Position numbers and translations under genes: made by a program. From positions 3,956-53,544 of the forward strand of contig CAZCXF010000005.1 of assembly GCA_964502615.1 (NCBI GenBank): a DNA stretch of 49,589 nt, given 5' to 3'. Under the pieces are notes generated by a model. That model was not told the origin of the DNA. It was given only the letters and a program-made list of their open reading frames with translations, and did not search any database. The DNA is from an uncultured Candidatus Saccharibacteria bacterium. GTDB taxonomy: Bacteria > Patescibacteriota > Minisyncoccia > Phycocordibacterales > UBA9973. The first letter of the stretch is position 1. Every line of letters begins with the position of its first letter. This document shows positions 4,334-24,113 of the stretch, piece by piece.

Positions 4334-6118
4334 ATGAATACGGAAGTCCGAAACTGCCAGAATTGCAAAAATAACTTCACTATCGAACCTGATGATTTTT
4401 CTTTCTATGAGAAGATGAAAGTACCGGCTCCTACTTTTTGCCCAGCATGTCGTACTCAAAGACGCTGGGCATTTCGCAATGAACGAGGATTATATAAAAG
4501 AAAGTGTGATTATTCAGGAAAAGAAATTTTCTCTATGTATGCCCCAGATTCTCCAGTTAAAGTATATGATCGCGATATATGGATATCAGATGTATGGGAC
4601 CCACTAGACTATGGACGTGAGATTGATTGGTCAAAACCGTTTTTAACTCAATTACATGAGCTCATGCTTGATGTACCATTTAAATCAAATAATGTAATTC
4701 GCGGGGTAAACAGTGATTACTCTAACAATGCAACTGATCCAAAGAATTGTTACTTAGTTTTTAATACTACTGTTCCAGAAGATTGCATGTATTCAAATGG
4801 ATTAAACTATTCGAGAGAATGTGTTGATGTTTCTCATGTATCTAAATGTGAGACTTGTTATCAAAGTTTCTGGTTGGGTTCATGTTATAGAGCAAATTAC
4901 TGTTCTCAATGTGTGGATTCAAGTGACCTATGGTTTTGTAAGGATTGTCAGGGGTGTATGAACTGTTTCGGTTCAGTTAATCTTAGAAATAAAAATTATC
5001 ATTTCTTTAATGAACAACTTTCAAAAGAGGATTATGAAAAAAGAGTAGAAGAATATAATTTACATACTCGTGAAGGAGTAGAGAGAGCTTTTAAAGATAC
5101 CCATGAATTTTGGAAAAAATTTCCTAACAAAAACCATCAAGGAATCAAAAACGTAGATTGTACAGGTTCCTATGTCAGTAACTCAAAAAATGTTAAAGAC
5201 TCTTTTCTTGTGCGAGAGAGTGAAAATATGCGCTACTGCCAATACATACAAGAGACTCCTGGGTCAAAAGATTGTTATGACTACTCAAACTGGGGCTGTG
5301 GAGCAGAACTAGTATATGAATCTATATCTTGTGGTAATGGAGTACAGAATCTTAAATTTACTTGGCTTACTCAAGAGAGTGCTCACGATGCTGAATATAC
5401 AATTGCTTGTTTTGGTTCGAGCTATCTTTTTGGGTGTGTAGGTATACGTAAAAAAGAATACTGTATTTTGAATAAACAATATACCAAAGAAGAATATTTT
5501 GAACTTGTAGAAAAAATTAAAAAACATATGGACGAAATGCCATACGTAGATAAAGTCGGACATATTTATAGATACGGAGAATTTCTTCCATCTGAGATGA
5601 GTCCATGGGCTTATAATGAAACAATTGCGCAAGAATATTTCCCTCTAACAAAAGAACAAGCTATTGCAAAAGGTTATCGATGGAGAGACCCAGATGTAAA
5701 AGATTATAAGCCAACATTACCATCAGATAATATTCCAAATGATATTACTCAAGTTGATGAATCAATAACAAAAGAAATAATAGAGTGTGCACACAAAGGG
5801 GAGTGTAATCAAGGGTGCACAAAGGCATTCCGAATTATTCCTGATGAGTTAGCTTTTTATAAAAAGATTGGTGTGCCACTTCCAACTTTATGTCCGGCAT
5901 GTCGTACTATCGAGAGATTAAAACTAAGATTAGGAGTTGAATTATACGATAGTACTTGTATGTGCAATGGAACTCAATCAAAGGATAGTATTTATAAAAA
6001 CCAGGTTGCACATCCGCATGGAGATGTTTCTTGTGAGAATAAATTTAAAACAGGATTTAAACCAGATCACGGAGATCTAGTATACTGCGAGAGTTGTTAT
6101 CAGCAAGAAGTAGATTAA
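4334..6118 (+). CDS. Cysteine-rich protein with terminal zinc-ribbons, paralog A (uncharacterised family)
   Basis: 594 aa ORF. N-terminal CQNCKNNFTIEPDDFSFYEKMKVPAPTFCPACRTQRR, Cys-dense centre, C-terminal AFRIIPDELAFYKKIGVPLPTLCPACR and YCESCYQQEV. Clear paralog of the next two ORFs and of 16988-18724. Confidence 0.85.
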   Translation: MNTEVRNCQNCKNNFTIEPDDFSFYEKMKVPAPTFCPACRTQRRWAFRNERGLYKRKCDYSGKEIFSMYAPDSPVKVYDRDIWISDVWDPLDYGREIDWSKPFLTQLHELMLDVPFKSNNVIRGVNSDYSNNATDPKNCYLVFNTTVPEDCMYSNGLNYSRECVDVSHVSKCETCYQSFWLGSCYRANYCSQCVDSSDLWFCKDCQGCMNCFGSVNLRNKNYHFFNEQLSKEDYEKRVEEYNLHTREGVERAFKDTHEFWKKFPNKNHQGIKNVDCTGSYVSNSKNVKDSFLVRESENMRYCQYIQETPGSKDCYDYSNWGCGAELVYESISCGNGVQNLKFTWLTQESAHDAEYTIACFGSSYLFGCVGIRKKEYCILNKQYTKEEYFELVEKIKKHMDEMPYVDKVGHIYRYGEFLPSEMSPWAYNETIAQEYFPLTKEQAIAKGYRWRDPDVKDYKPTLPSDNIPNDITQVDESITKEIIECAHKGECNQGCTKAFRIIPDELAFYKKIGVPLPTLCPACRTIERLKLRLGVELYDSTCMCNGTQSKDSIYKNQVAHPHGDVSCENKFKTGFKPDHGDLVYCESCYQQEVD

Positions 6119-6120
6119 TC

Positions 6121-7812
6121 ATGGAAACAAGAAACTGCCAAAACTGCAAAAATGATTTCACCATCGAGCTAGATGACATTTCTTTCTATGAGAAGATGAA
6201 AATACCATTACCAACATGGTGTTTTGAATGTAGACAACAACGTAGATATGCTTGGCGAAACGAACGAACTTTATACAGAAGAACTTGTGATCTTTGTCAA
6301 AAAAGTATGGTTACAATATATTCACCCAATAAACCTTTCAAGGTTTATTGTAACGAGTGTTGGTGGAGTGATAATTGGGATTCATCCTCGTATGGGAAAG
6401 ATTTTGATTTCTCGAGACCATTTTTTGAACAGTTTTCTGAATTACAGCATGAGGTACCTCGTATGGCGCTTTTGAATAAAAATAGTACCAACTCCGAGTA
6501 CACTAATCATTCTGGAAATAATAAGAATGTTTACATGTCATTTTGTTCTTTCGACGGAGAAAATATTATGTATAGCACTTGGACAATGAAAAATTGTCGA
6601 GACCTGATGGATTGCGGTTTTATTGCTGAAAAAGGGGAGAGACTATATGAAGTTATCGATTCGCGCACCTCATACCAATGTCAGTATGGTATTTTCTTGA
6701 AAGATTGCTCCTCTTGTTATTATTGCTACGACTGCAAAGGTTGTACAGATTGTTTCATGTCTTCAAATTTACGTAATAAAAGTTATGTATTTAAAAATGA
6801 ACAATATACTAGAGAAGAGTATTTAGAGAAAATAAAAGAGTTTGATCTATCTTCTTACCAAACTCGTGAAAACTTAAATAAAGACTTTGAAGATTTGCTT
6901 AAAAATCACTCAATACATCGATATGTCATTAGTGAAAGAAATATAAATTCTACTGGATCTCTACTTTTTGATTGTAAAAATATTATTAATTCTTTTGAAG
7001 TAGATAAAGGAGAAAATTGTAAATATATTTATGGAGGTATTGATATAAAAGATTCTATGGATATTTACCACGTAGGATACAATATTGAGCTATGTTATGA
7101 GTGCCAAGGGTGTACAAGAATTCCTAACTGCCAGTTTTGCCATCTTTGTTACGACGATATGAATGTAATGTATTCTGACACGTGTCAGAATAGTCAGAAT
7201 CTTTTTGGTTGCGTTTCGGTTAAGAAAGGAGAATATATGATTTTTAATAAAAAATATACCAAAGAAGAGTATAGTTCTCTAAAAGAAAAAATTATTGAAC
7301 ATATGAGACAAACAAAAGAATATGGAGAATTTTTTCCACCTTCAATAGCGCCAGTTTATTATAATGAAACTCAAGGAAATCTTTATGACCCACTAACAAA
7401 AGAAGAAGTTTTAGCAAAAGGTTGGCAATGGGAAGATAACCTTCCTGGAACTTTTGGAAAAGAAACAATTTCCCATATGAATATTCCAGATAGAATTGAA
7501 GATATATCTGATGAATACTTAAAAGAAATTTTTGCATGTTTATTATGTTCAAAAAATTATAATATCACACGCGATGAAATTACTTTTTATCGAAAAGAAA
7601 ATATTCCACTACCAAGGAAGTGTCCTAATTGTCGATACAAAAGGAGGTTTGATCTCCGTCCGCTTAGGAAACTTTGGCACAGATCATGTATGTGTGAAAA
7701 ATCTAGTCATAACCATGAAGGAAAATGTCCAATTGAATTTGAAACTAGTTATGCCCCTGATCGGTCGGAGGTAATATATTGTGAGCAATGTTATCAACAA
7801 GAAGTTTTATAA
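6121..7812 (+). CDS. Cysteine-rich protein with terminal zinc-ribbons, paralog B
   Basis: ATG at 6121 gives METRNCQNCKNDF, matching the paralog N-termini, 2 nt after the stop of paralog A. I count 37 Cys. The ORF-track start at 6094 lies inside paralog A and is rejected. Confidence 0.85.
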   Translation: METRNCQNCKNDFTIELDDISFYEKMKIPLPTWCFECRQQRRYAWRNERTLYRRTCDLCQKSMVTIYSPNKPFKVYCNECWWSDNWDSSSYGKDFDFSRPFFEQFSELQHEVPRMALLNKNSTNSEYTNHSGNNKNVYMSFCSFDGENIMYSTWTMKNCRDLMDCGFIAEKGERLYEVIDSRTSYQCQYGIFLKDCSSCYYCYDCKGCTDCFMSSNLRNKSYVFKNEQYTREEYLEKIKEFDLSSYQTRENLNKDFEDLLKNHSIHRYVISERNINSTGSLLFDCKNIINSFEVDKGENCKYIYGGIDIKDSMDIYHVGYNIELCYECQGCTRIPNCQFCHLCYDDMNVMYSDTCQNSQNLFGCVSVKKGEYMIFNKKYTKEEYSSLKEKIIEHMRQTKEYGEFFPPSIAPVYYNETQGNLYDPLTKEEVLAKGWQWEDNLPGTFGKETISHMNIPDRIEDISDEYLKEIFACLLCSKNYNITRDEITFYRKENIPLPRKCPNCRYKRRFDLRPLRKLWHRSCMCEKSSHNHEGKCPIEFETSYAPDRSEVIYCEQCYQQEVL

Positions 7813-7815
7813 TCT

Positions 7816-9519
7816 ATGGAAACAAGAAATTGCCAAAATTGTAAAAATGATTTCAACATCGAACCAGATGATTTTTCGTTCTATGAGAAGATCAAAGTTC
7901 CTCCACCAACGTTTTGTGTAGAATGCAGGATGAAAAGGCGTATGGTTTGGCGCAATGTACGTTCTCTTCATAGAAGGGAATGTGGTATGTGTAATAAGTC
8001 TATTATATCTATGTATAAAGACGATGGGGTACCTGTATATTGTACAGAATGCTGGTTTGGGGGGAATTATGATTTATTTAAATACGGCAGGGAATATGAT
8101 TTCTCAAGGTTATTCTTTACACAGTTAAAAGAACTTTTCAATAAAGTTCCAAGATATTTTGCGTATAAAGCTGGAACATTAGTAAATTCTGATTACACTA
8201 ATTTTACTGTTGATAATAAAAATGCTTACTTGTCTTTTTCCATAGTTGGGTGTGAAGATATATCCTATAGTGAAGTAATTGATAAATCAAAAAATAGCAT
8301 GGATTGCTATGCTGTAGTAAAAATGGATGGATGTTATCAAAACATAGATTGTGAAGGAAATTATAATACTTACTATGCTGTTAAATCTCAATCATGTATT
8401 GACTCATCTTTTGTTTACGATTGTGTAAATTGTCAGAATTGTTGCTTGTCATCAAATCTAAGAAATAAGCAATATTATTTTAATAATCAAAAATTAAGCA
8501 AAGAAGAATATCAAAAAGCAGTTGCTGATTTACAACTAAGAACAAATACTGGGATACAAAATACTAAAAAATATTTTGATGAAGAAATTTTAAAAAATGC
8601 AATTCATAAATTTTCATATTCTTATGCTAATGTGGATGCCACAGGGGACTACTTGAATCATTGTAAAAATACAAAATTTTGTTTTGATGCTTATGATGCA
8701 GAAAATATAAAATATGCTTGTCGAACTTTTGATTCGAAAGACTGTATGGATTTGCAAGGTGTTGGTGGTGGAGAATTAATTTACGATACTGTTGCTGCAA
8801 GTTGGGGAACTTACAAAGATTATTTTTGCTACATAACACTTGGTTGTAAAGAATGCGAATATTCTTTGAATTTAAAAAACTGCTCTAATTGTTTTGGATG
8901 TGTAGGATTAATGAATGCAAAATATTGTATTTTTAATAAACAATACGAAAAAGAAAAATATTTTGAAATTGTTAAGAAAATTAAACAACATATGAAAGAT
9001 ATGCCATATATAGATAGTATGGGACGTATATTTTCTTATGGTGAATATTTCCCATTTGATATGTGTCCTTTTGGTTACAATGAAGGAAATTCAAATGACG
9101 GATTTCCAATCTCAAAAGATGAAGCTATTAGTATGGGATACCCATGGTATGAGAGAGAAAAAAGAGATTATCAAATTACGATAAATTCACAAGATTTACC
9201 CGATAGTATTGATGATATATCAGATAATATCACTCAAGAAGTCATTAGTTGCCCCAATGGCGGCTATGCAGAGTTTCAATGTACAGTAGCCTTTCGCATA
9301 ACCCCTGAAGAATTATCTTTTTATCGTCAAAAAGGACTTCCTTTGCCTAGATATTGTCCAAATTGTCGTCACTATGAGCGTCTTAAATACAGAAATCCTA
9401 TGAAATTATATAAAAGAACTTGTAGTAATGGTTGTGGAAGAGAATTTGAGACTACTTATGCTCCAGATAGGCCTGAGAGAGTCTATTGTGAGCAGTGTTA
9501 TCAGGCTGAGGTTCTCTAA
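7816..9519 (+). CDS. Cysteine-rich protein with terminal zinc-ribbons, paralog C
   Basis: Starts METRNCQNCKNDFNIEPDDFSFYEKIKVPPPTFCVECR, 3 nt after the stop of paralog B. Same architecture, ends YCEQCYQAEVL. Confidence 0.85.
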   Translation: METRNCQNCKNDFNIEPDDFSFYEKIKVPPPTFCVECRMKRRMVWRNVRSLHRRECGMCNKSIISMYKDDGVPVYCTECWFGGNYDLFKYGREYDFSRLFFTQLKELFNKVPRYFAYKAGTLVNSDYTNFTVDNKNAYLSFSIVGCEDISYSEVIDKSKNSMDCYAVVKMDGCYQNIDCEGNYNTYYAVKSQSCIDSSFVYDCVNCQNCCLSSNLRNKQYYFNNQKLSKEEYQKAVADLQLRTNTGIQNTKKYFDEEILKNAIHKFSYSYANVDATGDYLNHCKNTKFCFDAYDAENIKYACRTFDSKDCMDLQGVGGGELIYDTVAASWGTYKDYFCYITLGCKECEYSLNLKNCSNCFGCVGLMNAKYCIFNKQYEKEKYFEIVKKIKQHMKDMPYIDSMGRIFSYGEYFPFDMCPFGYNEGNSNDGFPISKDEAISMGYPWYEREKRDYQITINSQDLPDSIDDISDNITQEVISCPNGGYAEFQCTVAFRITPEELSFYRQKGLPLPRYCPNCRHYERLKYRNPMKLYKRTCSNGCGREFETTYAPDRPERVYCEQCYQAEVL

Positions 9520-9786: not shown

Positions 9787-12120
9787 ATGCCTTCAAAAAA
9801 GACTGTGTCAAACAAGAAAAAGGTCGCGAGTGTTAAAGTTCTTTCTGTTCCAGAAAAAACATCAAACAAGAATAATTTTATTAAAAGTGTTCAAAAAAGA
9901 GACGGTGTCATTGTCCCTTTTGATATAGAAAAGATAGTGAATGCTATTAATAAAGCTATGCTTGCTTCAGATGAAGGCTCTATGAAGGAGGCAGAGATGG
10001 TAGCTAATAGAGTTGTTATGGAATTAGTCAAAATAACTAAGCGCCACAAGAACTTTATACCAACAGTTGAAGGTGTACAGAACACAGTCGAACAAGAATT
10101 GATGCTTGCTGACTATGTAAAAACTTCTAAAAATTATATTCTCTACCGTGAAGAACGTGCACGCCTACGCGCACACAGTATTGTAGTACCAGAGCGTGTG
10201 AAAAAACTTGCAGATGAGAGTAAAAAATATTTCCGCAATCCACTTTCTGAATTTGTTTACTACAGAAGTTATGCGAAATGGATTGAAGAAGAGGGAAGAC
10301 GTGAGACATGGATCGAGACAATCGATCGCTACATTGGTTTCATGAAAAAAAATCTTGGCAACAAACTAAAAGAATCTGAATACAAAGAAATTCGTGAAGC
10401 AATTCTAAAACAAGAAGCTATGCCATCAATGCGATTATTGCAATTTGCTGGTCCTGCGGCTGAGAAGACAAATGTTTGTGCATACAACTGTTCATTCATC
10501 GCACCTTCACGTTTTGAAGACTTCGGAGAAATAATTTACATCTCAATGTGTGGAACAGGAGTAGGATTCTCAGTTGAGAGTAAAAATATTCAAGCACTTC
10601 CTCAAATAAAAAACCAAACAGGAAAAAAACTTCCAACTTTTGTTGTACCAGATACAAAAGAAGGTTGGGCTGATGCTTTTGTTCTAGGTATGAAGACATG
10701 GTTTAACGGTGAAGATATAAATTTTGATTTCTCTCAATTGAGGCCTGCAGGTGCTCGTCTTAAAATAATGGGTGGTAAGAGTTCAGGACCTAAGCCGCTT
10801 ATCGACTTACTTGGGTTTACTCGCGAAAGAATCTTGAAGCGCCAAGGGCGCCATCTTCGAAATATCGATGCACATGACATAATCTGTAAGATTGGTGAAT
10901 GTGTGGTTTCTGGAGGAGTTCGCCGTAGTGCCCTTATTTCACTATCTGATTTAGATGATCAGGATATGCGTGATGCTAAAAATGGCCAATTCTGGCTAAA
11001 TGAAGGTCAGAGAATGCTAGCTAATAACTCAGCAGTCTATAATACAAAACCTACAGAGACAGAATTCCTGAAAGAATGGATTGCCCTTATGGAATCAGGC
11101 TCTGGGGAGAGAGGAATATTTAATCGTGGTGCACTTACTACATCACTACCAAAACGTCGTCTAGAGGTTTCTAAAAATTATATTGGTGAGATGGGAACAA
11201 ACCCTTGCGGGGAAATAATCTTGCGCTCAAGACAATTTTGTAACCTATCAGAAGTTGTTGCACGTTCTGAAGATACAGAAGCAACACTTATGAAGAAAAT
11301 TCGTATCGCTACAATACTTGGAACTTACCAATCAACTCTTACAAAATTCGGCTATCTTTCAAAAGAATGGAAGGACAATTGTGAAGCAGAAAGATTGCTC
11401 GGAGTTTCTGTTACAGGGCAATGGGATTCAACAGTTGCAAGAAATGGTGATATGTTGAAAAAATTAAGAAACGAAGCAATTCGTGTTAATAAAATTTATG
11501 CAAAACGTTTTGGTATAAATGAATCAACATGCATAACTTGCGTTAAGCCATCAGGAACAGTTTCTCAGACAGTAGATTGTGCATCAGGTATGCATCCAAG
11601 ACATGCACCATACTACATTCGTCGTGTTCGTATCTCTGCAACAGATTCACTATTTAAAATGATGAAAGACCAAGGTGTACCTTACTATCCAGAAGTAGGT
11701 CAATCAGTGGATAGTGCAAATACTTTTGTTTTAGAGTTTCCAATGAAAGCACCAGACGGAGCAATATGTAAGGATGATATTTCTGCAATTGACCAGCTTG
11801 AACACTGGAAAGTTGTAAAAGTAAATTACACTGAACACAATCCTTCAGTTACAGTGTCTGTAGGAGAGAATGAATGGATTCAAGTTGCACATTGGCTTTA
11901 TCAAAACTGGGAAATAGTAGGAGGACTTTCATTTTTGCCACGCTCAGACCATGTTTATCAACTTGCTCCGTATGAAGCCATTGATGAGAAAACGTATAAA
12001 GCATTAACAAGTAAAATGCCGGAGTTTGATTTCTCAAAAATTGTCACTTATGAACTTCGTGACGAAACTGAAGTTAAAAAGGAACTTGCGTGTGTTGCTG
12101 GAGTTTGTGATATAGTCTAA
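9787..12120 (+). CDS. nrdJ: Class II (adenosylcobalamin-dependent) ribonucleotide reductase, RTPR-like, with N-terminal ATP-cone
   Basis: Lys-rich tail, then ATP-cone (VQKRDGVIVPFDIEKIVNAINKA). Core has the thiyl-radical loop GTNPCGEI and FCNLSEV. C-terminal redox pair CVAGVC has the C-x4-C spacing of Lactobacillus leichmannii RTPR. Confidence 0.85.
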   Translation: MPSKKTVSNKKKVASVKVLSVPEKTSNKNNFIKSVQKRDGVIVPFDIEKIVNAINKAMLASDEGSMKEAEMVANRVVMELVKITKRHKNFIPTVEGVQNTVEQELMLADYVKTSKNYILYREERARLRAHSIVVPERVKKLADESKKYFRNPLSEFVYYRSYAKWIEEEGRRETWIETIDRYIGFMKKNLGNKLKESEYKEIREAILKQEAMPSMRLLQFAGPAAEKTNVCAYNCSFIAPSRFEDFGEIIYISMCGTGVGFSVESKNIQALPQIKNQTGKKLPTFVVPDTKEGWADAFVLGMKTWFNGEDINFDFSQLRPAGARLKIMGGKSSGPKPLIDLLGFTRERILKRQGRHLRNIDAHDIICKIGECVVSGGVRRSALISLSDLDDQDMRDAKNGQFWLNEGQRMLANNSAVYNTKPTETEFLKEWIALMESGSGERGIFNRGALTTSLPKRRLEVSKNYIGEMGTNPCGEIILRSRQFCNLSEVVARSEDTEATLMKKIRIATILGTYQSTLTKFGYLSKEWKDNCEAERLLGVSVTGQWDSTVARNGDMLKKLRNEAIRVNKIYAKRFGINESTCITCVKPSGTVSQTVDCASGMHPRHAPYYIRRVRISATDSLFKMMKDQGVPYYPEVGQSVDSANTFVLEFPMKAPDGAICKDDISAIDQLEHWKVVKVNYTEHNPSVTVSVGENEWIQVAHWLYQNWEIVGGLSFLPRSDHVYQLAPYEAIDEKTYKALTSKMPEFDFSKIVTYELRDETEVKKELACVAGVCDIV

Positions 12121-12130
12121 TATCAAATAT

Positions 12131-12658
12131 ATGAATAAAAATTGGTCAAAGTACATACTCGGTTTTATAGGGGTGCTATTTATTCGCCTAATACCTTTTC
12201 GTGCCCCAAATATTGAGCCAATATTAGCAGCTCAAATGCCTTTTGCTAGAAAATACGGTGTTTTTTCATCATTTCTATTTGGATTCTTAAGTATTACTAT
12301 ATATGACCTATTTACCTCTGGAATTGGTGTTTGGACTTTGGTCACAGCTATCGCTTATGGATTGTTAGGTATTGGAGCATCATACTTCTTAAAAAATAGG
12401 TCTGGTTGGAAGAATTATGCTATATACGCTATTATTGGAACTATTTTATATGATGCTGTTACTGGACTTACTATTGGACCAATATTCTTCGATCAACCAT
12501 TCATAGCATCTTTGATCGGCCAAATACCTTTTACAGCTCTCCACTTGCTTGGTAACGTATCATTTGCTATTATTCTCTCACCTGTTATTGAAATGTGGAT
12601 TAGCAAGGAAACAAAATCAGTTATGTCTGTTAACGGGAAAGTAGTTTTAAACAGTTAG
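12131..12658 (+). CDS. Small polytopic membrane protein, ECF S-component/DUF6580-like; candidate vitamin (cobalamin?) transporter
   Basis: 175 aa with about 6 TM helices. The RLIPFRAPNIEPI motif before TM2 resembles solitary S-component-type vitamin carriers. Starts 10 nt after the nrdJ stop. Confidence 0.4.
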   Translation: MNKNWSKYILGFIGVLFIRLIPFRAPNIEPILAAQMPFARKYGVFSSFLFGFLSITIYDLFTSGIGVWTLVTAIAYGLLGIGASYFLKNRSGWKNYAIYAIIGTILYDAVTGLTIGPIFFDQPFIASLIGQIPFTALHLLGNVSFAIILSPVIEMWISKETKSVMSVNGKVVLNS

Positions 12659-12679
12659 TGTCTTTAAAAATTTAACCTA

Positions 12680-12762
12680 TTGTGTTTGGAAGTGAGGTGA
12701 AATTCCTCCACTGTGCCGCAACGGTAAAGCTCTAAATGAGACGAGTCCGATCTTAACACTCT
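12680..12762 (+). promoter_or_regulatory. Cobalamin riboswitch aptamer (compact form)
   Basis: GGAAGUGAGGUGAAAUUCCUCCACUGUGCCGCAACGGUAA core, short CUCUAAAUGAG hairpin, and a B12-box-like GAGUCCGAUCUUAACAC whose AACAC pairs with the upstream GUGUU (P1). Confidence 0.75.
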
Positions 12763-12806
12763 AGTGTGCATCCCGAGCAGGAACAGATTTTTTGTAAACT
12801 CTTTAT

Positions 12807-12846
12807 AAAAACTCCTCTGATTTCTATTCGGAGGAGTTTTTATTTT
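12807..12846 (+). terminator. Riboswitch expression platform: intrinsic terminator
   Basis: AAAAACTCCTC (12807-12817) pairs with GAGGAGTTTTT (12831-12841), followed by ATTTT. The 3' arm contains GGAGGAG about 12 nt before the ATG at 12847. Confidence 0.7.
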
Positions 12847-13257
12847 ATGAAAAAGAAAATATCAAAAATAATAATATCGACAATCATAGCACTAACTTTT
12901 TTTATTAGTGGGGAATTTGCTCTAGCTAAGACTGCGCATTCAATAAAAAAAGTTTCAGTGAAAGAAAATTTTATAACTATACAGGTTCTTGATAATACTT
13001 ATCAGGCTTCATATAAAGATGGTCAATCTTTATATGAAGTCATGAAAAATCTTGCAGATAAAAAAAATAGTAATTTTTCTTTTCATTCAAAAAATTACTC
13101 AGGACTAGGTAACTTTATAGATGAGATAAATGGAATAAAAGGAACTAAGGGGCGTTATTGGATTTATTATATTAATAACAAAAAGGCATCGGTAGGCGTA
13201 TCAAAATATTTTGTTAAGAATGGAGATATTATCAAATGGAGTCAAGAAGGAATTTAA
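12847..13257 (+). CDS. Secreted DUF4430 (transcobalamin-like C-terminal domain) protein
   Basis: Start taken at MKKKISKIIISTIIALTFFISG (signal/anchor), because the ORF-track start at 12766 would run through the riboswitch. The GLGNFIDEINGIKGTKGRYWIYYINNKKASVGVSKYFVKNGDIIKW pattern is typical of DUF4430. Confidence 0.75.
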   Translation: MKKKISKIIISTIIALTFFISGEFALAKTAHSIKKVSVKENFITIQVLDNTYQASYKDGQSLYEVMKNLADKKNSNFSFHSKNYSGLGNFIDEINGIKGTKGRYWIYYINNKKASVGVSKYFVKNGDIIKWSQEGI

Positions 13258-13261
13258 TACC

Positions 13262-15376
13262 ATGAAAACACAAAAAATTTTAGTAGCTATAGTTTTAATT
13301 TTTACTTTTATATCTTTTTCACAAATATCTTATGCTGATATTGTAGATACAAATCCGCCAGTGATTACTCTAATTGGTTCACCTACAGTAAATATAAATG
13401 TAGGGGATACATACAATGACGAAGGTGCAACTGCTCTTGATGATGTAGATGGAGATATAACAGTAAATATTGTAAAAACTGGATCTGTTGATACCACTTT
13501 AGCTGGTAGTTATACTATAAATTTTGATGTATCTGACAGTGCTCATAACAACGCTACTACTGTAAGTAGGACAATTATTGTAAACGAAGTACAACAAACT
13601 CCAAAAGAAACTATCTTTATAAGAAACGGTGACAGTGTTGTATATAGTGGAAATATAGATTTACCTGTACAAGGTAATGTAGATATAACAGACAATTCTG
13701 GTGTTGTTCACCAAGTGAATAATAGAAGTGTACTTGGTTTTTTGTATGCTCTTGACCAAACGTCTGATTCTTTTTCACTTTCTAATCTCCAATACTATGA
13801 TTCTTTTTCTTCATTTTATATAAAATGTATTACTCCAAGTGGGACAAGTGAACTCTGTGATAGTTGGCAATATGTAGTAGGAGGAACAAGTCCATGGACT
13901 AGTGTCGATAGCACTTTTCTTACTGGAGGAGAAACTATAGCATTATATTTTGGCAATCCTTATCGTGTTAATCTAAGTAGTACCAATATAACTACATCTG
14001 ATACTATCACTGCGAAATCAGAATCTTACAACTATACAGATAATACATGGAGTGTTCGCACTGGAGTAACAATAGGAGTAACAGTTCCAAACCCGAACGA
14101 TCCCTGGAACCCTAATGTTGTTTCAACTTATCCAGTAGATACGAATGGAGAAGCAATCCTTTCTTTTACCACAGAAGGTACTTATACGGTTGGAATCTCA
14201 GAAGATTACTATTTTCCTTCATATACAGTAATAGTAAGCAAAACTTCCGGGGGCGGCGGCGGGGGCGGCGGAACTCCAACTTCTATATCAATACCCCAAG
14301 CCCTAGCTTTCTTGGCTAGTAACCAAAAACCTAATGGTTCGTTTGGTGATATGCTCTATACAGATTGGGCAGCTATAGCGATATCAGGAGCTGGAAGCCA
14401 AGCACAAAGTTTAAGGGGTAAAATATTTGATTATCTAAAAAATAATCCTTATCAATCAAATACTTTAACTGACAACGAAAGACACGCAATGGCTCTAATG
14501 TCTTTAGGGATTAATCCTTATTCTGATACTGGTACAGATTATATAAAAAAAATTACTAATTCCTTTGATGGAACTCAGTTTGGTGACTCTTCACTTTATA
14601 ACGATGACATATTTGCGATAATTGTTTTATCTAAAGCAGGGTTTACTTCAAATGATGAAATTATAAAAAAAGATGTGAGTTTTATAATTTCTAAACAACA
14701 AGGAGATGGATCTTGGGGAAGTGTAGATATGACAGGGGCAGGAATTCAAGCTCTACGTTCATTTTCAGATCTATCAGGTGTATCTCAATCTATAACTTTA
14801 GCCGAGAGTTATTTGGTAAATTCTCAGGATGGAGGAGGTGGATTTGGTAATTCTTCATCAACAAGTTGGGCAATGCAAGCTCTGTCTATGAATGGAGGTC
14901 TTAGTTCTAAAGTTACAAGTGCAGATAAATATTTAGCTCAACTTCAAGACAAAGATGGAGGACTCGATTCTACAGGTTCACTTGAAAATAGAATTTGGTC
15001 AACGTCTTATGCAATACCAGCATCACTACATGTTTCTTGGAATAGTATTTTGCAATCTTTTTTAAAACAAAGTAATTCAAATGGAGATATCAATAATAAT
15101 CCAACCCCAGCACCTATTCCAGTAATTACTCAGATAAAGACTGAAGATCCTATTAAAAAAGTTACTGACGATGTAAAGCCAGTTATAAAAAAGAAAAAGA
15201 AGTTAAAAAATACTGATAAGAAAGAAGCACTCCAAGCCTCTGAAAAAAATAACCCATTAACTGCATCTGCAGCAGATGCTCTATCTAGCGAGAGTCCATC
15301 CCCATCAGTTTTTAGGAGGATTATAAACGCTATCGAATCTCCATTTGTCTGGCTTTTCGTTAAACTTGGATTTTGA
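13262..15376 (+). CDS. Large surface protein: signal peptide, DUF5011 Ig-like domain, DUF4430-like domain, Ig-like spacer, Gly8 linker, prenyltransferase/terpene-cyclase-like alpha/alpha repeats, Lys-rich tail and C-terminal hydrophobic anchor
   Basis: Start at MKTQKILVAIVLIFTFISFSQISYA. DTNPPVITLIGS...GATALDDVDGDIT...GSYTINFDVSDSAHN matches DUF5011. CDSWQYVVGG...LTGGETIALYFG is DUF4430-like. Repeats LASNQKPNGSFGD, IISKQQGDGSWGS, LVNSQDGGGGFGN and LAQLQDKDGGLDS are of the squalene-cyclase/prenyltransferase type. Ends ...FVWLFVKLGF. Confidence 0.7.
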   Translation: MKTQKILVAIVLIFTFISFSQISYADIVDTNPPVITLIGSPTVNINVGDTYNDEGATALDDVDGDITVNIVKTGSVDTTLAGSYTINFDVSDSAHNNATTVSRTIIVNEVQQTPKETIFIRNGDSVVYSGNIDLPVQGNVDITDNSGVVHQVNNRSVLGFLYALDQTSDSFSLSNLQYYDSFSSFYIKCITPSGTSELCDSWQYVVGGTSPWTSVDSTFLTGGETIALYFGNPYRVNLSSTNITTSDTITAKSESYNYTDNTWSVRTGVTIGVTVPNPNDPWNPNVVSTYPVDTNGEAILSFTTEGTYTVGISEDYYFPSYTVIVSKTSGGGGGGGGTPTSISIPQALAFLASNQKPNGSFGDMLYTDWAAIAISGAGSQAQSLRGKIFDYLKNNPYQSNTLTDNERHAMALMSLGINPYSDTGTDYIKKITNSFDGTQFGDSSLYNDDIFAIIVLSKAGFTSNDEIIKKDVSFIISKQQGDGSWGSVDMTGAGIQALRSFSDLSGVSQSITLAESYLVNSQDGGGGFGNSSSTSWAMQALSMNGGLSSKVTSADKYLAQLQDKDGGLDSTGSLENRIWSTSYAIPASLHVSWNSILQSFLKQSNSNGDINNNPTPAPIPVITQIKTEDPIKKVTDDVKPVIKKKKKLKNTDKKEALQASEKNNPLTASAADALSSESPSPSVFRRIINAIESPFVWLFVKLGF

Positions 15377-15388
15377 TATAATAGCTAT

Positions 15389-15952
15389 ATGAAACTAAAA
15401 TTTATAGGACTTGTAGTAGTTGTAATATTATTTGTAATTGGTTTGGGGGTTTTTATGAACAAGCAATCATCCGCTCCTAGTAAGTATGATGACTTTGCTA
15501 AAGCTCTAAAAACAGAAGAGGCTCAATTTTATGGAGCTTTTTGGTGTCCACATTGTAAAGCAGTGAAAGAATTATTTGGTAATGCTAAAAGATATTTACC
15601 TTATATTGAATGTTCTAACCCAGATCAAACAGTAACTAAAGTATGTGTAGATAATAAAATTGAAAGTTACCCAACTTGGAAATTTAAAAATGGTATAACA
15701 ATAGCCTCAAAAGGCGATCCACTTATATGTCCTATCAGATCTGAGAAACCATACAAAGATGCAATTTGTGATCAAACTGGATCTCAATTTTATCGAACAT
15801 GGATTTTCCCAGAATATAAGTTTTCTATAAAAAGTCCTACCGATCCAATAAGTAAAGATGGCGTTTGGAAATTTGCACCTGAGGCAGAAGTAACAGGGGA
15901 GACACCACTTGAATTCTTAGCCGCACAAATTGGATTTAATCTTCCTAAATAA
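15389..15952 (+). CDS. Membrane-anchored thioredoxin-like oxidoreductase (VKOR-associated Trx type)
   Basis: N-terminal TM helix. FYGAFWCPHCKAVKELFGNAKRYLPYIECS...SYPTW closely resembles the Trx-like domain fused to bacterial VKOR. Confidence 0.75.
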   Translation: MKLKFIGLVVVVILFVIGLGVFMNKQSSAPSKYDDFAKALKTEEAQFYGAFWCPHCKAVKELFGNAKRYLPYIECSNPDQTVTKVCVDNKIESYPTWKFKNGITIASKGDPLICPIRSEKPYKDAICDQTGSQFYRTWIFPEYKFSIKSPTDPISKDGVWKFAPEAEVTGETPLEFLAAQIGFNLPK

Positions 15953-15953
15953 T

Positions 15954-16505
15954 ATGCCATCATATATTGAAAATTTTAACCAACTGCTGTCTGTAGGAAC
16001 AGTAATTCTACACGTGGTGATATTATTGATTGTAATAAATCTAGCTTTTCTTAGATCACACAATAATAAAGTTCTAATTTTCTTTAAAAAATATACTTTC
16101 TATTTTGGGTTTGCTACAGCTCTTGCATCTGTAGCTCTGTCGCTGTTTTATTCCGAAATAATTGGTTTTCCTCCTTGTGAGCTTTGTTGGATTCAAAGAA
16201 TTTTCCTATATCCACAAGTAATACTTTTTGGAATGGAACTTTATAAACGTGAGAGAGTAATAGTTGATTATAGTATGGTTATGGCAACCTTCGGGATGAT
16301 TGTCTCGCTATTCCATATGTATATTGAACGTGGAGGATCATCCTCCCTTGCTTGCGCTGTTGGAGGAAAAGCTGCTATATCTTGTGCAAAAATATATGTT
16401 GAAGAATTCTCATACGTGACTATACCGGTCATGGCGCTAACAGCATCTGTTTTTATATTTATACTCCTACTCAATTACAAATACATGACTCGTAACAAGA
16501 TTTAG
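15954..16505 (+). CDS. dsbB: Disulfide bond formation protein B (BdbC/DsbB family)
   Basis: Four TM helices. FYSEIIGFPPCELCWIQRIFLYPQ is near-identical in pattern to Bacillus BdbC. A second Cys pair (CAVGGKAAISC) sits in loop 2. Start at MPSYIENF, 1 nt after the upstream stop. Confidence 0.8.
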   Translation: MPSYIENFNQLLSVGTVILHVVILLIVINLAFLRSHNNKVLIFFKKYTFYFGFATALASVALSLFYSEIIGFPPCELCWIQRIFLYPQVILFGMELYKRERVIVDYSMVMATFGMIVSLFHMYIERGGSSSLACAVGGKAAISCAKIYVEEFSYVTIPVMALTASVFIFILLLNYKYMTRNKI

Positions 16506-16987: not shown

Positions 16988-18724
16988 ATGGAATCACAAA
17001 ATAAAATATGCCAAAACTGCAAACAAAACTTCATCATAGAATCCGAAGATTTTTCTTTCTATGAAAAAATAAAAGTTCCTCCACCTACATTTTGTTCAAA
17101 TTGTTCTCATCAACGTAGATTTGCTTGGCGAAATACGCACTCCCTGTATCATAGACCAGACTCAATAACAGGGAAAGATTTAATTTCTATCTATCATCCT
17201 GAAACGAAGATGAATATTGTCGATCAAAAGTACTGGTGGAGTGACAAATGGGATCCATTTGAATATGGCAAAAAGTATGATTTCTCTAAAGATTTTTTTA
17301 CTCAATGGAAAGAACTTAGAGATAAGGTTCCATTTCAAGCATTATCTAATTCAAAAGCTGTGAATAGTGAATATTGCAACGTAGCTGAAGAAAGCTATGA
17401 TTGCTATCTTATTTCAGCTTGCTGGAAAAATGAGCGGGTTATGTATGCTGATTCGTTAGTTAAAGTAAAAGACTCTATGGATCTTTATATTGTAGAAGAA
17501 AGTGAGTTTTGCTATGAGGATATTTATTGCAAGGAATCTTATAGGTTGTTTTATAGCCAAGAATGTAATTCGTGCACAGATTCTTATTTTTTATATGATT
17601 GCAGAGGTTGTGTAGATTGTTTTATGTCTTCAAATTTAAGGAATAAGAGTTATGTTTTTAACAACATCCAACTCTCAAAAGAAGAATACTTTGAAAAAAT
17701 TAAACAATATGATTTAGGAAGTTTTTCTGTAATTAAAAGATTGAAAGGGGATTTTGAAGAATTAAAAAACAATTCAATAAGAAAATTCGCCACCATTACT
17801 AATAGTCAAGAAGTAACTGGCGATCATATTTATAATACTTATAACTCTAAAAATGTTTTCGATGTTTCTGATAATGTTAAAAACTCAAAACATTTATTCT
17901 GGTCAGTAAACAATATTTTTGACTGCTATTATTCCAATGCTGTTGGTGCGATTGAAAATAGTTTTGAAATGAATGATGCTGGTGTTGGCGGGTTATTATG
18001 CAGATTTTCTAGCGTAGTGTACTCTTCAACTGAAGTTGATTATTCTTTCAATTGTTATAACTGTCATAATATTTTCGGTTGCATAGGACTTCAAAATAAA
18101 TCTTATTGTATTTTAAACACACAATATACAAAAGAGGAGTATATGGATTTACTGCCAAAAATAAAAGAACAAATGATAAATATTCCGTACATAGATCAAA
18201 AGGGTAGATCTTATAAATATGGAGAATTTTTTCCAATAGAACTATCTCCTTTTTCATATAATGAAACTGTAGCAAATGATTTCTTTCCTTTAACAAAAGA
18301 GGAAATATACAACTTAGGATATAAGTATAGAGAAAAAGAGAGTAGAGATTATAAACCCACACTACTATCTTCTAACATTCCAGATAGTGTTTTGGAAATA
18401 AACGAAAGTATTATAAATGAAGTTATAAGTTGTGATACATTACCTGGTTCAGATAGATGTACAATAGCATTTAAAATTAGACCAGATGAATTGATTTTTT
18501 ATAAGCGTTTTAATATACCCATACCTAGAAGATGTTATCAGTGCAGACACAAGCAACGTTTTTTACAAAGAAACCCTTTAAAACTATGGCATAGGTCATG
18601 TATGTGTGAAAAAGAGGGACATAAACATGCTGGGAAGTGCCAGATAGAGTTTGAGACAAGCTATAGTCCTGAACGTCCAGAGATTATCTACTGTGAAAAG
18701 TGCTATCAACAAGAGGTGATATGA
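16988..18724 (+). CDS. Cysteine-rich protein with terminal zinc-ribbons, paralog D
   Basis: Starts 1 nt after the cutA stop. CQNCKQNFIIESEDFSFYEKIKVPPPTFCSNC at the N-terminus, CVDCFMSSNLRNKSYVF in the centre, LWHRSCMCEKEGHKHAGKCQIEFETSYSPERPEIIYCEKCYQQEVI at the C-terminus (closest to paralog B). Confidence 0.85.
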   Translation: MESQNKICQNCKQNFIIESEDFSFYEKIKVPPPTFCSNCSHQRRFAWRNTHSLYHRPDSITGKDLISIYHPETKMNIVDQKYWWSDKWDPFEYGKKYDFSKDFFTQWKELRDKVPFQALSNSKAVNSEYCNVAEESYDCYLISACWKNERVMYADSLVKVKDSMDLYIVEESEFCYEDIYCKESYRLFYSQECNSCTDSYFLYDCRGCVDCFMSSNLRNKSYVFNNIQLSKEEYFEKIKQYDLGSFSVIKRLKGDFEELKNNSIRKFATITNSQEVTGDHIYNTYNSKNVFDVSDNVKNSKHLFWSVNNIFDCYYSNAVGAIENSFEMNDAGVGGLLCRFSSVVYSSTEVDYSFNCYNCHNIFGCIGLQNKSYCILNTQYTKEEYMDLLPKIKEQMINIPYIDQKGRSYKYGEFFPIELSPFSYNETVANDFFPLTKEEIYNLGYKYREKESRDYKPTLLSSNIPDSVLEINESIINEVISCDTLPGSDRCTIAFKIRPDELIFYKRFNIPIPRRCYQCRHKQRFLQRNPLKLWHRSCMCEKEGHKHAGKCQIEFETSYSPERPEIIYCEKCYQQEVI

Positions 18725-22084: not shown

Positions 22085-23479
22085 TTAATTACTTATCCAG
22101 CTTAATTGTTTGTACCCAGCAGAGGAAAGAGGAAAACTTGGTGGGGGTGAGTAAAGCAAATTGTTATCATAAGTACTTGTTGTATTCGTGAATCCAGAGA
22201 CATTATTCCCAGATCCATTTACCCATGTCCAGGTCCATTGGCCAAAGCTCATTATTGATCCATATATAGTTATACTATTTTTTATTCTGGGGGTTGAATA
22301 AAGGAAAAACTGCGCACTACCATTTTGTGATACAAGAGCTGCATCTACTTCTAAATTGGTAGGTGCATTATATGTCACAATTACATTTTTTTGAGATAAC
22401 AATCCCAAAACACTTGATCCATCTTTCGCCTGGTAGATTATATTGTTGGGTATATAAATACTTGGAGCAGTATTTGCAACATACGGTAGTTTTGCTGCTG
22501 CAAGCATAACTCTACCATTAACTGTACCTTCTACCCAAGTATTATCTTCTATATAGATTATTCCATTTGTTGGGATCGCTACTGTATATTGATGAGACCT
22601 TGCATTGTAATCTATATCTTCATTGTGGGCATTACCATTTACATCCCATCCTGTTGGAGTACTAGTTAATGATGTAACTTTATAAACCGATACAGTTCCA
22701 TTACTATTAAAAACAATCGAATAGCCATTTGTATTTGATGGAGGCAGATAAATACCAGCTGATTGTGCAGAACTTTTCATTGTAGCAAGATTTGAAGTGA
22801 GTGCTGAAAAATCGACAACAGGTACTGGGAATTGCCAGAAGTTTTTTATTGCTTGACTTGCAGCACCCCATACTCCATTTTTCGTTGTGGGACACGGGCT
22901 ACCTTGGCTAGATGGACATGTGTATGTTGATTTTGCTGAACTAATAGGAGCATTACCTACACCGTCGAATCTTATACCATTATTTGACTGCATCTGGCCA
23001 TTTACTGTTTCACTCGAACCTATCCATATTACGTCGTTGCTTAGAAATGAATATAAAGCAAGCGAGGGTATCCCGTATTTTGCAGTTATTGTTCTTTTTA
23101 TTTGTGGATTTTCAGATGTCCAACCAGTAGAAGCAATTGTTACAATCGTCGATCCAGTTGCTGGTGCTGTTATAGATAGGCTGTACTGACCTATAACTGT
23201 TTCATTGTCTAAATCAGTATAATTGTGTAGATATGGTCCAGTTGTTCCTGTTCCATCTTGATAATCAGTTGGGAAGTGTGCCAAATGCCATTGATAATAA
23301 TTTATCCCAGCTTCAGCTATTTGAAGAGCTTGTTCTCCAGCTATGTTTGATTTTATTACTTTACTTTGAGTTACTGCCCAGTTTATTATAGGGAACATAG
23401 TTATAGAAAATATAAAAATAACAAAGAGTAGTAACAATAAGATGCTTCCATTATTTGTTTTTTTCTTTATTTTATTCAT
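22085..23479 (-). CDS. PilX-like pilus-associated protein (large minor-pilin/tip candidate)
   Basis: N-terminal TM helix followed by the PilX_N-like EQALQIAEAGINYYQWHL motif. Body is Ser/Thr/Asn/Gly-rich and beta-type. The start overlaps the upstream stop by 1 nt (TAATG). Confidence 0.55.
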   Translation of the reverse strand: MNKIKKKTNNGSILLLLLFVIFIFSITMFPIINWAVTQSKVIKSNIAGEQALQIAEAGINYYQWHLAHFPTDYQDGTGTTGPYLHNYTDLDNETVIGQYSLSITAPATGSTIVTIASTGWTSENPQIKRTITAKYGIPSLALYSFLSNDVIWIGSSETVNGQMQSNNGIRFDGVGNAPISSAKSTYTCPSSQGSPCPTTKNGVWGAASQAIKNFWQFPVPVVDFSALTSNLATMKSSAQSAGIYLPPSNTNGYSIVFNSNGTVSVYKVTSLTSTPTGWDVNGNAHNEDIDYNARSHQYTVAIPTNGIIYIEDNTWVEGTVNGRVMLAAAKLPYVANTAPSIYIPNNIIYQAKDGSSVLGLLSQKNVIVTYNAPTNLEVDAALVSQNGSAQFFLYSTPRIKNSITIYGSIMSFGQWTWTWVNGSGNNVSGFTNTTSTYDNNLLYSPPPSFPLSSAGYKQLSWISN

Positions 23480-24111
23480 TAGTTTCCAAGGTTAGTTTTA
23501 ATATTTCTAATAGCTCCACCAGCATTTACTGTAAAAGTACTATTATTGTTTGGTGATATTTGTTTTAAAACTGTTAGGTTAATTTTAACAAATTTTACTA
23601 AATTAATATTGACTTGCTGAGTTAGTGCATTTCCACTACCACTATAATTACCGTCATAGTAATAAAATAGTGGATTAGATCCCAAAGATAAATTTTTTAA
23701 TACCGTTGTTATTACTTCATTAGCAGTATTGTATGTACCTGGAGTCCCTGTAGGATCTATTATACCTTTTAATAATGTACTACCCGATATGTAATATCTG
23801 ACTCTCGATACTGTTCCGTTGCCCTTAGGTGCAGTTGAAAAGAATATTATTTGCGTATCACCCGCTTGATTTATCGGATAGGCACCATTTGCGCCATAAG
23901 AAGCATTTCTCATTTCATTCACAAAGTTATTTGCTGCTTTTCTAGCAAGATCCACATTGTCCATACTCATACTCTGCTGTCTTACATTTACAAATATATT
24001 TTTCAACATAAGTGTTGTTCCTGAGGCTACTATACCAAACACAAAAATAACTACCATCGTTTCTACTAGTGTAAACCCCTTTTCTAAATTATTATTGAAT
24101 AGTTTTTTCAT
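23479..24111 (-). CDS. Type IV pilin-like protein (prepilin-type N-terminal cleavage/methylation domain)
   Basis: Class III signal KG-FTLVETMVVIFVFGIVA with Glu at +5. Confidence 0.8.
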   Translation of the reverse strand: MKKLFNNNLEKGFTLVETMVVIFVFGIVASGTTLMLKNIFVNVRQQSMSMDNVDLARKAANNFVNEMRNASYGANGAYPINQAGDTQIIFFSTAPKGNGTVSRVRYYISGSTLLKGIIDPTGTPGTYNTANEVITTVLKNLSLGSNPLFYYYDGNYSGSGNALTQQVNINLVKFVKINLTVLKQISPNNNSTFTVNAGGAIRNIKTNLGN

Positions 24112-24113
24112 TT

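Follow-up and report, generated by a model that had tools for sequence, protein, structure and literature searches.

The question addressed here is what two adjacent genes, preceded by a cobalamin riboswitch and lying downstream of a gene for a ribonucleotide reductase that depends on adenosylcobalamin (AdoCbl), do for an ultra-small bacterium of the Patescibacteria. The pair lies in a stretch of 49,589 nucleotides (hereafter the window, a term used for that whole stretch) from an uncultured Candidatus Saccharibacteria bacterium (GenBank assembly GCA_964502615.1, contig CAZCXF010000005.1, positions 3,956 to 53,544 of the forward strand), and all coordinates given without a locus name are positions in the window. 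Gene 1 encodes a small protein predicted to be secreted and gene 2 a large, modular surface protein. A preliminary description of this DNA, made from its letters alone, saw in the pair a candidate corrinoid-scavenging system built from transcobalamin-like modules. The answer that we consider likely after the analysis described below is that genes 1 and 2 form an inducible cell-surface module for the capture of corrinoids (vitamin B12), within a Paceibacteria-like B12 salvage island.

The riboswitch leader and the gene pair

The leader of the pair contains, on the + strand, the aptamer of an AdoCbl (cobalamin) riboswitch. The Rfam model RF01482 (AdoCbl, clan CL00101) matches it at 12662-12789 over model positions 1-149 of 149 with 56.6 bits (gathering score 50), and a covariance model of our own (R1) places it at 12662-12794 with 134 bits. 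The cobalamin class assigned in the preliminary description is confirmed, for an element that lies just outside the interval taken up by the two genes (12847-15376). The expression platform follows at 12806-12846 (+), as indicated by the RNA fold of 12655-12860, a hairpin scan and the sequence: a hairpin of 15 bp and -20 kcal/mol (12806-12842) is followed by UUUU and then, at 12847, by the ATG of gene 1. A simple terminator scanner gave no call on this hairpin; our own hairpin scan detected it. Since the only plausible Shine-Dalgarno sequence of gene 1, GGAGGAG, is located in the 3' arm, the same hairpin can both stop transcription and mask the ribosome-binding site. Judged from its sequence, the leader would follow the logic of an OFF switch, with putative ligand-dependent control. 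The ATG of gene 2 starts 4 nt after the stop codon of gene 1, and on the opposite strand under the two genes there is no open reading frame of 60 aa or more.

The gene on the other side of the riboswitch (12131-12658), which encodes a membrane protein discussed below, has its stop codon 3 nt before the aptamer and is therefore situated upstream of riboswitch control. In the clade of the window this distance is 2-5 nt in 13 of 14 sources, and 24 nt in locus L030. So short a gap implies that the riboswitch probably acts inside a longer transcription unit, in which the reductase and the transporter would probably stay on while the high-affinity trap alone is repressible by B12.

In order to see how far this arrangement is kept, the loci around the best 80 of 372 relatives of gene 2, found among one-per-species GTDB genomes, were surveyed with R1, which had been built from Rfam-positive upstream regions of such loci. 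A cobalamin riboswitch was found in 62 of the 80, on the coding strand each time and just upstream; five further loci have too little upstream DNA to judge, which leaves approximately 75 assessable. Among the first 11 loci tested, Rfam itself reported a riboswitch of the cobalamin clan in the upstream DNA of 10; three of these 11 loci score as AdoCbl-II (RF01689) and not as AdoCbl (RF01482). If the window is added to the 62 related loci, 63 riboswitch sources are obtained: 58 of them show the order riboswitch, gene 1, gene 2, and in three the riboswitch stands directly before gene 2. The survey of co-occurrence with the riboswitch that the preliminary description had suggested is thus positive. 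Hundreds of genomes keep the gene pair, with the riboswitch in the same place, and the arrangement is far beyond chance. A hairpin of -8 kcal/mol or below together with a U-run was found by our own scan in 17 of the 63 leaders, and therefore many relatives may use translational control.

Another regulatory gene appears in part of the family. In 17 loci (for instance L025, 7906-8235, and L037, 7903-8250) gene 2 is directly followed by a small gene of the ArsR family, with a helix-turn-helix domain, and this gene is present in nine of the ten riboswitch-less loci that have ample upstream DNA. In those riboswitch-less ArsR loci the genes memS (the membrane protein), nrdJ (the reductase), pduO (an adenosyltransferase), gene 1 and gene 2 are contiguous. 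The ArsR-family gene may represent an alternative, protein-based control of the B12 module.

Architecture of the two proteins

Gene 1 (12847-13257, +) encodes a protein of 136 aa, predicted to be secreted, that consists of a signal peptide and a stand-alone DUF4430 domain of the transcobalamin beta type (SLBB), as had been proposed. The signal peptide, read from the sequence, comprises residues 1-27, is hydrophobic and ends in ALA, followed by K. Residues 59-133 (nt 13021-13245) match PF14478 with E 1.3e-15 and 58.1 bits (gathering score 23.8), over positions 1-70 of the 72 of the profile. All 26 close homologues of gene 1 are DUF4430 proteins, and a gene-1-like open reading frame precedes gene 2 in 75 of the 80 loci. 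DUF4430 is the C-terminal (beta) domain of the TCN proteins (PMC4350170; PMC1796856), and isolated transcobalamin-type beta domains occur naturally in fish (PMC4350170).

Gene 2 (13262-15376, +) encodes a surface protein of 704 aa, which was modelled with AlphaFold2 from an alignment with 50 orthologues; the predicted local distance difference test score (pLDDT) of the whole chain is 82. From the N to the C terminus, it is made up of a signal peptide, an Ig-like domain, a transcobalamin-beta-like domain, a beta-sandwich, a glycine hinge, an alpha/alpha toroid, a stalk and a hydrophobic helix. The N-terminal signal-like segment is predicted from the sequence. The Ig-like domain, at residues 35-107 (13364-13582, +), is the bacterial surface Ig-like domain PF16403 (Pfam E 3.3e-19; PDB entry 2kpn, 3.4e-7). 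The preliminary description had named it DUF5011, which we take to be the older name of the same family (Bact_surface_Ig-like), and in that sense it was right. The domain is considered accessory because it is absent from many orthologues.

The beta domain at residues 113-235 (13598-13966, +) is central to the interpretation of the protein. The preliminary description had identified a second DUF4430-like domain here, in the segment CDSWQY...GGETIALYFG. Pfam gives no match to DUF4430 for this domain of the window protein at E 0.01 or below, so that the claim fails at this level; it is supported by the fold and by an orthologue of the same architecture (P0049), which passes the DUF4430 gathering score with 26.9 bits at residues 160-236. 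When residues 113-235 were modelled alone, the pLDDT was 94.5 and the predicted template modelling score (pTM) 0.87, and comparison of this model with the PDB by Foldseek returned, as the top 19 matches, only haptocorrin, intrinsic factor, transcobalamin and one bacterial DUF4430 structure. They include 4kki, 2pmv, 3kq4, 5no0, 5np4, 2bb5 and related entries as well as 3u7z, with probabilities of 0.90-1.00 and TMq values of 0.47-0.62; below them there are generic ubiquitin-like folds with probabilities of 0.6 or less. 3U7Z is the structure of a DUF4430 protein of R. gnavus, and 5NO0 and 5NP4 are structures of the isolated transcobalamin beta domain. An alignment of profiles (hhalign) between residues 113-240 and the gene 1 family is weak (P 0.014) and in the right register, and the same comparison for residues 236-330 gave nothing. 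Searches of the PDB sequences with genes 1 and 2, as single sequences and as profiles, returned no chain of transcobalamin, intrinsic factor or haptocorrin; it was the fold comparison alone that tied the internal domain to these carriers. The model thus describes the segment as a real, divergent beta domain of the transcobalamin type, that is, a DUF4430-like beta-grasp with N-terminal hairpins. It contains a WQY...G(G/D)E motif and the only two cysteines of gene 2, C189 and C199, both of which are invariant; such a pair fits an extracytoplasmic disulfide.

The beta domain is followed by an all-beta spacer, a beta-sandwich at residues 236-329 (13967-14248, +), whose strands are modelled with high confidence between residues 234 and 326 and for which Pfam gives no match; it corresponds to the further beta-rich module noted earlier. 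The hinge consists of eight glycines (residues 330-337; 14249-14272, +; pLDDT below 50). It had been reported before as a Gly8 linker with its coding tract ending at 14271, an end coordinate that has to be moved by one position, and across the 80 orthologues the glycine run is 2-10 residues long.

Residues 344-596 (14291-15049, +) form, in the AlphaFold2 model and by Foldseek, an alpha6/alpha6 toroid of 12 helices. The four repeats on which its prediction had rested (NGSFGD, DGSWGS, GGGFGN and DGGLDS), of the QxxDGxxG type, are all present in the fold, and 77 of 80 orthologues carry a motif NDD[IV]F. One face of the toroid bears the invariant residues D368/W369, T403/D404/R407, D436/Q439, N447/D448/D449, W536 and R577/W579/Y583. 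With the whole 704-aa model as the query, the best Foldseek match of the toroid is a protein similar to squalene-hopene cyclase (SHC; 8pak, 1.9e-8), followed by alpha2-macroglobulin (A2M), ECAM, C3 and TEP1 (6e-8 to 1e-6) and by transcobalamin (8e-7 to 7e-6); the SHC-like toroid, the thioester domains (TEDs) of A2M and C3 and the transcobalamin toroids lie within about two orders of magnitude of one another, too close for this search to tell them apart. In Pfam, SQHop_cyclase_C, TED_complement and Cobalamin_bind all reach the toroid below threshold. For Cobalamin_bind (PF01122) the window protein scores 17.1 bits where the gathering score is 25, and one orthologue (P0018) passes it with 27.9 bits. 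As to the proposal that gene 2 holds both halves of a transcobalamin-like binder in the order beta then alpha, the beta domain and the fold of the toroid bear it out, whereas the sequence of the toroid is nearer to squalene-hopene cyclase.

A disordered stalk rich in Lys and Pro (residues 606-679, pLDDT below 50) and a C-terminal hydrophobic helix (residues 684-701, ...SPFVWLFVKLGF) complete the protein (15077-15373, +), in agreement with the Lys-rich stalk and anchor described earlier. In many orthologues a classical transmembrane segment with a basic tail replaces the helix of the window type. Approximately 30 residues before the hydrophobic segment, a motif L[TS]AS[AV]x[DG] is kept in the window (15230-15373) and in orthologues; the segment itself ends in ...PFxWLxxxLGF-COOH in the clade of the window, and elsewhere in the transmembrane segment and basic tail, sometimes with IPTP before it. 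The combination of motif and hydrophobic segment looks like a sorting or anchoring signal. No other protein of these loci carries L[TS]AS[AV], which is confined among them to the gene 2 family.

The family and its surroundings

In addition to the 372 relatives in GTDB, more than 500 close relatives of gene 2 were found in a metagenome protein set. A profile search of 1.84 billion representatives gave 4606 matches at E 1e-30 or below, a number that giant proteins with numerous PF16403 Ig repeats inflate and that is therefore not usable as family size. The titles of the best 80 name Paceibacteria, Nomurabacteria, Falkowbacteria, Parcubacteria or Patescibacteria, and the remaining ones are automatic labels of a generic or implausible kind; in public databases the orthologues are called "terpene cyclase/mutase family protein" or "immunoglobulin-like domain-containing protein". 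The core formed by beta domain, sandwich and toroid is present in all 80 loci, and both gene 1 and the Ig domain can be dispensed with. Members without an Ig domain, or with more than one, are frequent (P0006 has two), and the unit of beta domain plus sandwich is tandemly duplicated in L072 (5800-8619) and L080 (5803-8589). The gene-2-like proteins P0015, P0069, P0096 and P0107 carry an extra N-terminal DUF4430 domain, which in some of them replaces the Ig domain; these natural fusions imply a functional link between the products of genes 1 and 2.

Upstream of the riboswitch lie two genes that place the pair in a B12 context. The first (nrdJ, 9787-12120, +) encodes a ribonucleotide reductase of the AdoCbl-dependent class II, RTPR-like and equipped with an ATP-cone (Pfam RNR-II_ins_dom, 6e-9), in keeping with the earlier suggestion of an organism that needs B12 for DNA synthesis; it scores 288 bits on the NCBIfam model TIGR02505 (RTPR), below the cutoff of 340. 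The second (memS, 12131-12658, +) encodes a polytopic membrane protein of 175 aa that resembles CbrT and the S-components of energy-coupling factor (ECF) transporters. PF07155 (ECF-ribofla_trS) is found in all 16 members of its family (best 8e-9), and the window member reaches 22.4 bits, below the gathering score of 26.7. The only S-component in the PDB matched by the family profile is 6FNP_A, a weak match (E 0.014) to a chain of 182 aa named "Membrane protein", which by its length is taken to be CbrT, the B12 S-component of L. delbrueckii, in the ECF-CbrT entry. Among the 80 loci, nrdJ is present in 47 and the CbrT-like gene in 45, and the two are always side by side. A PduO adenosyltransferase is encoded in 24 loci, upstream of the gene pair and after nrdJ, and matches Cob_adeno_trans at 3e-44 and also TIGR00636; the rest of the 49-kb window contains no PduO and no cob or cbi genes.

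Downstream of gene 2, after a gap of 12 nt with no terminator-like site on the + strand, there is a gene for a membrane-anchored thioredoxin-like protein with the motif WCPHC (15389-15952, +), followed by one for a DsbB/BdbC-like oxidoreductase (15930-16505, +), both assigned with Pfam and NCBIfam. Their co-transcription with genes 1 and 2 is possible. The thioredoxin gene occurs in 26 and the DsbB gene in 23 of the 80 loci. Because gene 2 has exactly two cysteines, both invariant, the oxidoreductase pair may oxidise its product; it could equally serve the pilin and competence proteins encoded nearby. The latter comprise two proteins with prepilin N-methylation motifs and one ComEC-type competence channel, at 23479-25934 (-) and 30090-31385 (+), and such genes for pili and DNA uptake are equipment expected of a Patescibacteria genome.

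The B12 island is flanked by four paralogous genes for Cys-rich proteins of about 570-590 aa (4334-6118, 6094-7812, 7816-9519 and 16988-18724, all +), with many CxxC pairs, an N-terminal CQNCKxxFxIExxDxxFYEKIKVPPPTFC motif and a zinc-ribbon-like C-terminal end. For the two that were scanned, Pfam gave a weak treble-clef match (E 0.0014) and nothing else, and relatives of these paralogues occur near nrdJ in 12 related loci. At the edge of the window, which cuts it, lies the C-terminal part of a protein with the MsbA-type ABC exporter fold (33-1001, +). According to the title of PMC10960864, cobalamin can be imported by ABC proteins of the exporter fold, of which mycobacterial BacA is an example; between the MsbA-type protein and the B12 genes, which are 9 kb away, no connection was seen.

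Function, rivals and precedents

The way in which such a capture module might work can be pictured as follows. At low intracellular AdoCbl the leader hairpin would stay unformed, which would allow expression of genes 1 and 2 and perhaps of the thioredoxin and DsbB genes as well. The gene 2 protein would be tethered to the membrane by its C terminus and would project through the wall on its stalk of approximately 75 residues, and its beta domain and toroid would close round a corrinoid at the flexible hinge, as in transcobalamin and intrinsic factor. The free beta domain encoded by gene 1 could be an alternative lid for the toroid, or it could diffuse, bind the ligand first and pass it to gene 2. 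Fedosov and colleagues reportedly found that cobalamin drives the separate alpha and beta fragments of intrinsic factor to assemble. The beta domain of transcobalamin on its own binds cobalamin, according to the title of PDB entry 5NP4. From the surface, the corrinoid would pass to the CbrT-like membrane protein and then, after adenosylation by PduO, to NrdJ.

A more specific version of the capture reading can be formulated, which we regard as possible and on the whole doubtful. It holds that Paceibacteria make a transcobalamin in reverse order, in which the tethered clamp of beta domain and toroid and the secreted solo beta domain would constitute a two-step relay to a solitary CbrT-like protein without an ECF motor, with an intra-operon AdoCbl riboswitch that renders the trap alone inducible.

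Several observations weigh against the capture reading or against parts of it. Corrinoid binding by gene 2, as for all bacterial members of this class, is something that we infer. The toroid is not specifically transcobalamin-like: the SHC-like protein and the TEDs of A2M and C3 rank at or above transcobalamin in the fold search, and the sequence profile of the toroid finds squalene-hopene cyclase in the PDB (3.8e-13) and no chain of transcobalamin, intrinsic factor or haptocorrin. The gene 1 family profile likewise has no transcobalamin match among the PDB sequences. The pTM of the whole gene 2 model is 0.45, so the arrangement of its domains is uncertain, and a clamp formed by beta domain and toroid is a proposal beyond what this model demonstrates. 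No CbiQ/EcfT and no ECF ATPase is encoded beside the gene pair or elsewhere in the 49-kb window, and the putative transporter gene lies upstream of the riboswitch. The ten related loci in which no riboswitch is detectable in spite of adequate upstream DNA must also be counted here, as must the report that a related operon of L. sakei affects the uptake of haem and not of B12.

This last point leads to the rival that comes nearest to corrinoid capture, namely that the pair takes up another tetrapyrrole (haem) or a corrinoid precursor and not complete cobamides. The L. sakei operon, of the ECF type and with separate transcobalamin-alpha-like and transcobalamin-beta-like proteins, has been studied genetically and reportedly affects haem uptake, a claim backed by docking; CbrT also takes cobinamide (PMC5997447), and Burroughs et al. 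left room for "B12 or its precursors" (PMC1796856). The aptamer found in 62 of 80 loci is nevertheless of the AdoCbl class, and the genes next to the pair encode an AdoCbl-dependent reductase and an adenosyltransferase instead of haem enzymes. The window has no genes for haem use and none for the attachment of a lower ligand, and in the latter case a precursor would be of little use. We consider this rival improbable.

Even less probable is the idea that gene 2 acts outside the cytoplasm on an isoprenoid, a lipid or a cell-wall ligand, as an enzyme or a binding protein similar to terpene cyclases or prenyltransferases, with the riboswitch reflecting a B12-dependent process of the envelope. The best profile matches of the toroid are indeed squalene-hopene cyclases and cyclases of the drimenyl-diphosphate synthase type, the top Foldseek match is the SHC-like 8pak, the acidic NDD[IV]F motif is kept in 77 of 80 orthologues, and the public label of the orthologues is that of a terpene cyclase/mutase. 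A catalytic class II terpene cyclase was rejected, however, since gene 2 has a single toroid and the DxDD motif occurs in 16 of 80 orthologues at no fixed position; the cyclases have two domains (beta-gamma), and only the QW-type repeats match. Moreover, the protein is predicted to be secreted, away from prenyl-diphosphate substrates, its toroid is always fused to a beta domain of the transcobalamin type and mostly paired with a DUF4430 protein, and the genes are controlled by a cobalamin riboswitch and adjoin nrdJ and pduO. Similar arguments reduce to a very slight chance the reading of gene 2 as an adhesin or protease trap of the A2M/complement kind, serving an episymbiotic lifestyle. The Foldseek matches to A2M, ECAM, C3 and TEP1 (6e-8 to 1e-6), the Pfam match to TED_complement (7e-4), the Ig-like domain and the long stalk would all suit it. 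The thioester (A2M) domain itself was rejected, given that CGEQ is found in none of the 80 orthologues and the toroid lacks any Cys; there is neither an array of macroglobulin domains nor a bait region, and the riboswitch, the DUF4430 domains and the nrdJ context would be left unexplained.

With corrinoid capture retained as the preferred reading, its precedents can be considered. The transcobalamin-like SLBB clade was defined by Burroughs, Balaji, Iyer and Aravind (Burroughs et al., 2007; Biol Direct 2:4; PMC1796856), who described bacterial fusions of SLBB and alpha/alpha toroid in both orders, fusions with Ig domains and, within the operon, another SLBB protein paralogous to the first, with CbiO/CbiQ neighbours and in hosts without B12 synthesis. 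They predicted B12 scavenging and proposed a bacterial origin for the B12 carriers of animals. The word "riboswitch" does not occur in that paper, and explicit control by an AdoCbl riboswitch was not analysed there. The window shares with this class the signal peptide, the SLBB/DUF4430 domain N-terminal to the toroid (as in their Bacillus example), the Ig fusion and the paralogous SLBB gene. It differs in lineage (Patescibacteria, not Firmicutes or archaea), in the beta-sandwich and Gly hinge between beta domain and toroid, in the disordered stalk and C-terminal hydrophobic segment that stand in place of an LPXTG-type anchor, and in its neighbours, which are nrdJ, the CbrT-like gene and pduO (the last in relatives) instead of CbiO/CbiQ. 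Since it fits the 2007 description in all but the type of transporter, the locus is a further member, in a new phylum, of the predicted kind. What is new with respect to 2007 is the spacer module, the stalk, the explicit riboswitch control and the neighbourhood of nrdJ, CbrT-like protein and PduO.

The vertebrate carriers transcobalamin, intrinsic factor and haptocorrin (PF01122 and PF14478; 2BB5, 2PMV, 4KKI) also possess an alpha6/alpha6 toroid, a beta-grasp domain and a flexible connection. Their order is alpha, linker, beta, whereas that of the window protein is beta (113-235), sandwich, hinge, alpha (344-596); the latter is predicted to be tethered to the membrane and has a separate solo beta partner, it scores below the PF01122 cutoff without any match to the three carriers at the level of sequence, and its binding of a ligand is predicted.

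On the side of transport, L. delbrueckii has a cluster nrdJ-cbrS-cbrT-pduO, and its CbrT transports B12 (Santos et al., 2018; PMC5997447; PDB 6FNP). A reductase of the RTPR type, an S-component-type protein and PduO (in relatives of the window) are likewise grouped in the loci studied here, and the Patescibacteria island therefore has the same composition. The similarity to CbrT is weak (E 0.014), no EcfA/EcfT is encoded in the window, and CbrT needs no extracellular binder in vitro. The L. sakei ECF operon lsa1836-1840 encodes the secreted transcobalamin-beta-like Lsa1839 and the transcobalamin-alpha-like Lsa1840, and haem uptake has been reported for it (bioRxiv 10.1101/864751). Both systems place extracytoplasmic transcobalamin-like alpha and beta modules beside a transporter of the S-component type; in L. 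sakei the alpha and beta parts are separate and the ECF module is full, whereas in the window one chain unites beta and alpha, a solo beta protein is added to it and an AdoCbl riboswitch is in control. A riboswitch-controlled system of several surface proteins that captures cobamides ahead of a transporter is known as well from Bacteroides thetaiotaomicron, in the BtuJ/BtuH/BtuG relay (PMC13616437), but its proteins are built differently (beta-jelly roll DUF4465; beta-propeller in BtuG) and are outer-membrane lipoproteins that feed a TonB-dependent transporter.

In a review of September 2026 the extracellular capture of cobamides by Gram-positive bacteria is termed "entirely uncharacterized" (PMC13616437), and our search of the literature found no experimental work on the family described here, nor any paper that treats it, or B12 riboswitches, in the Patescibacteria. 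The preliminary statement that the domain combination has not been characterised functionally is for that reason still fair; the architectural novelty that it implied is not, as the architecture was foreseen by Burroughs et al. in 2007.

The family offers a clean test case for B12 capture by bacteria with a single membrane, because it is large, with 372 species-level genomes, and its members are compact and sit behind a conserved AdoCbl riboswitch, beside NrdJ, a candidate transporter and an adenosyltransferase; NrdJ is the only obvious consumer of B12 beside the gene pair. Should the more tentative relay hold true, these reduced episymbionts would depend for their DNA synthesis on B12 obtained from the host or the community, and the family would provide the first bacterial counterpart of the animal B12 carriers that lends itself to experiment, and possibly their ancestor type. 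If corrinoid capture is confirmed, it would provide a mechanism for B12 dependence in the Patescibacteria, which are reduced, host-dependent bacteria, it would correct misleading labels such as "terpene cyclase/mutase" and "immunoglobulin-like domain-containing", and it would allow a direct test of the idea that animal B12 carriers derive from bacterial proteins made of a beta-grasp domain and a toroid.

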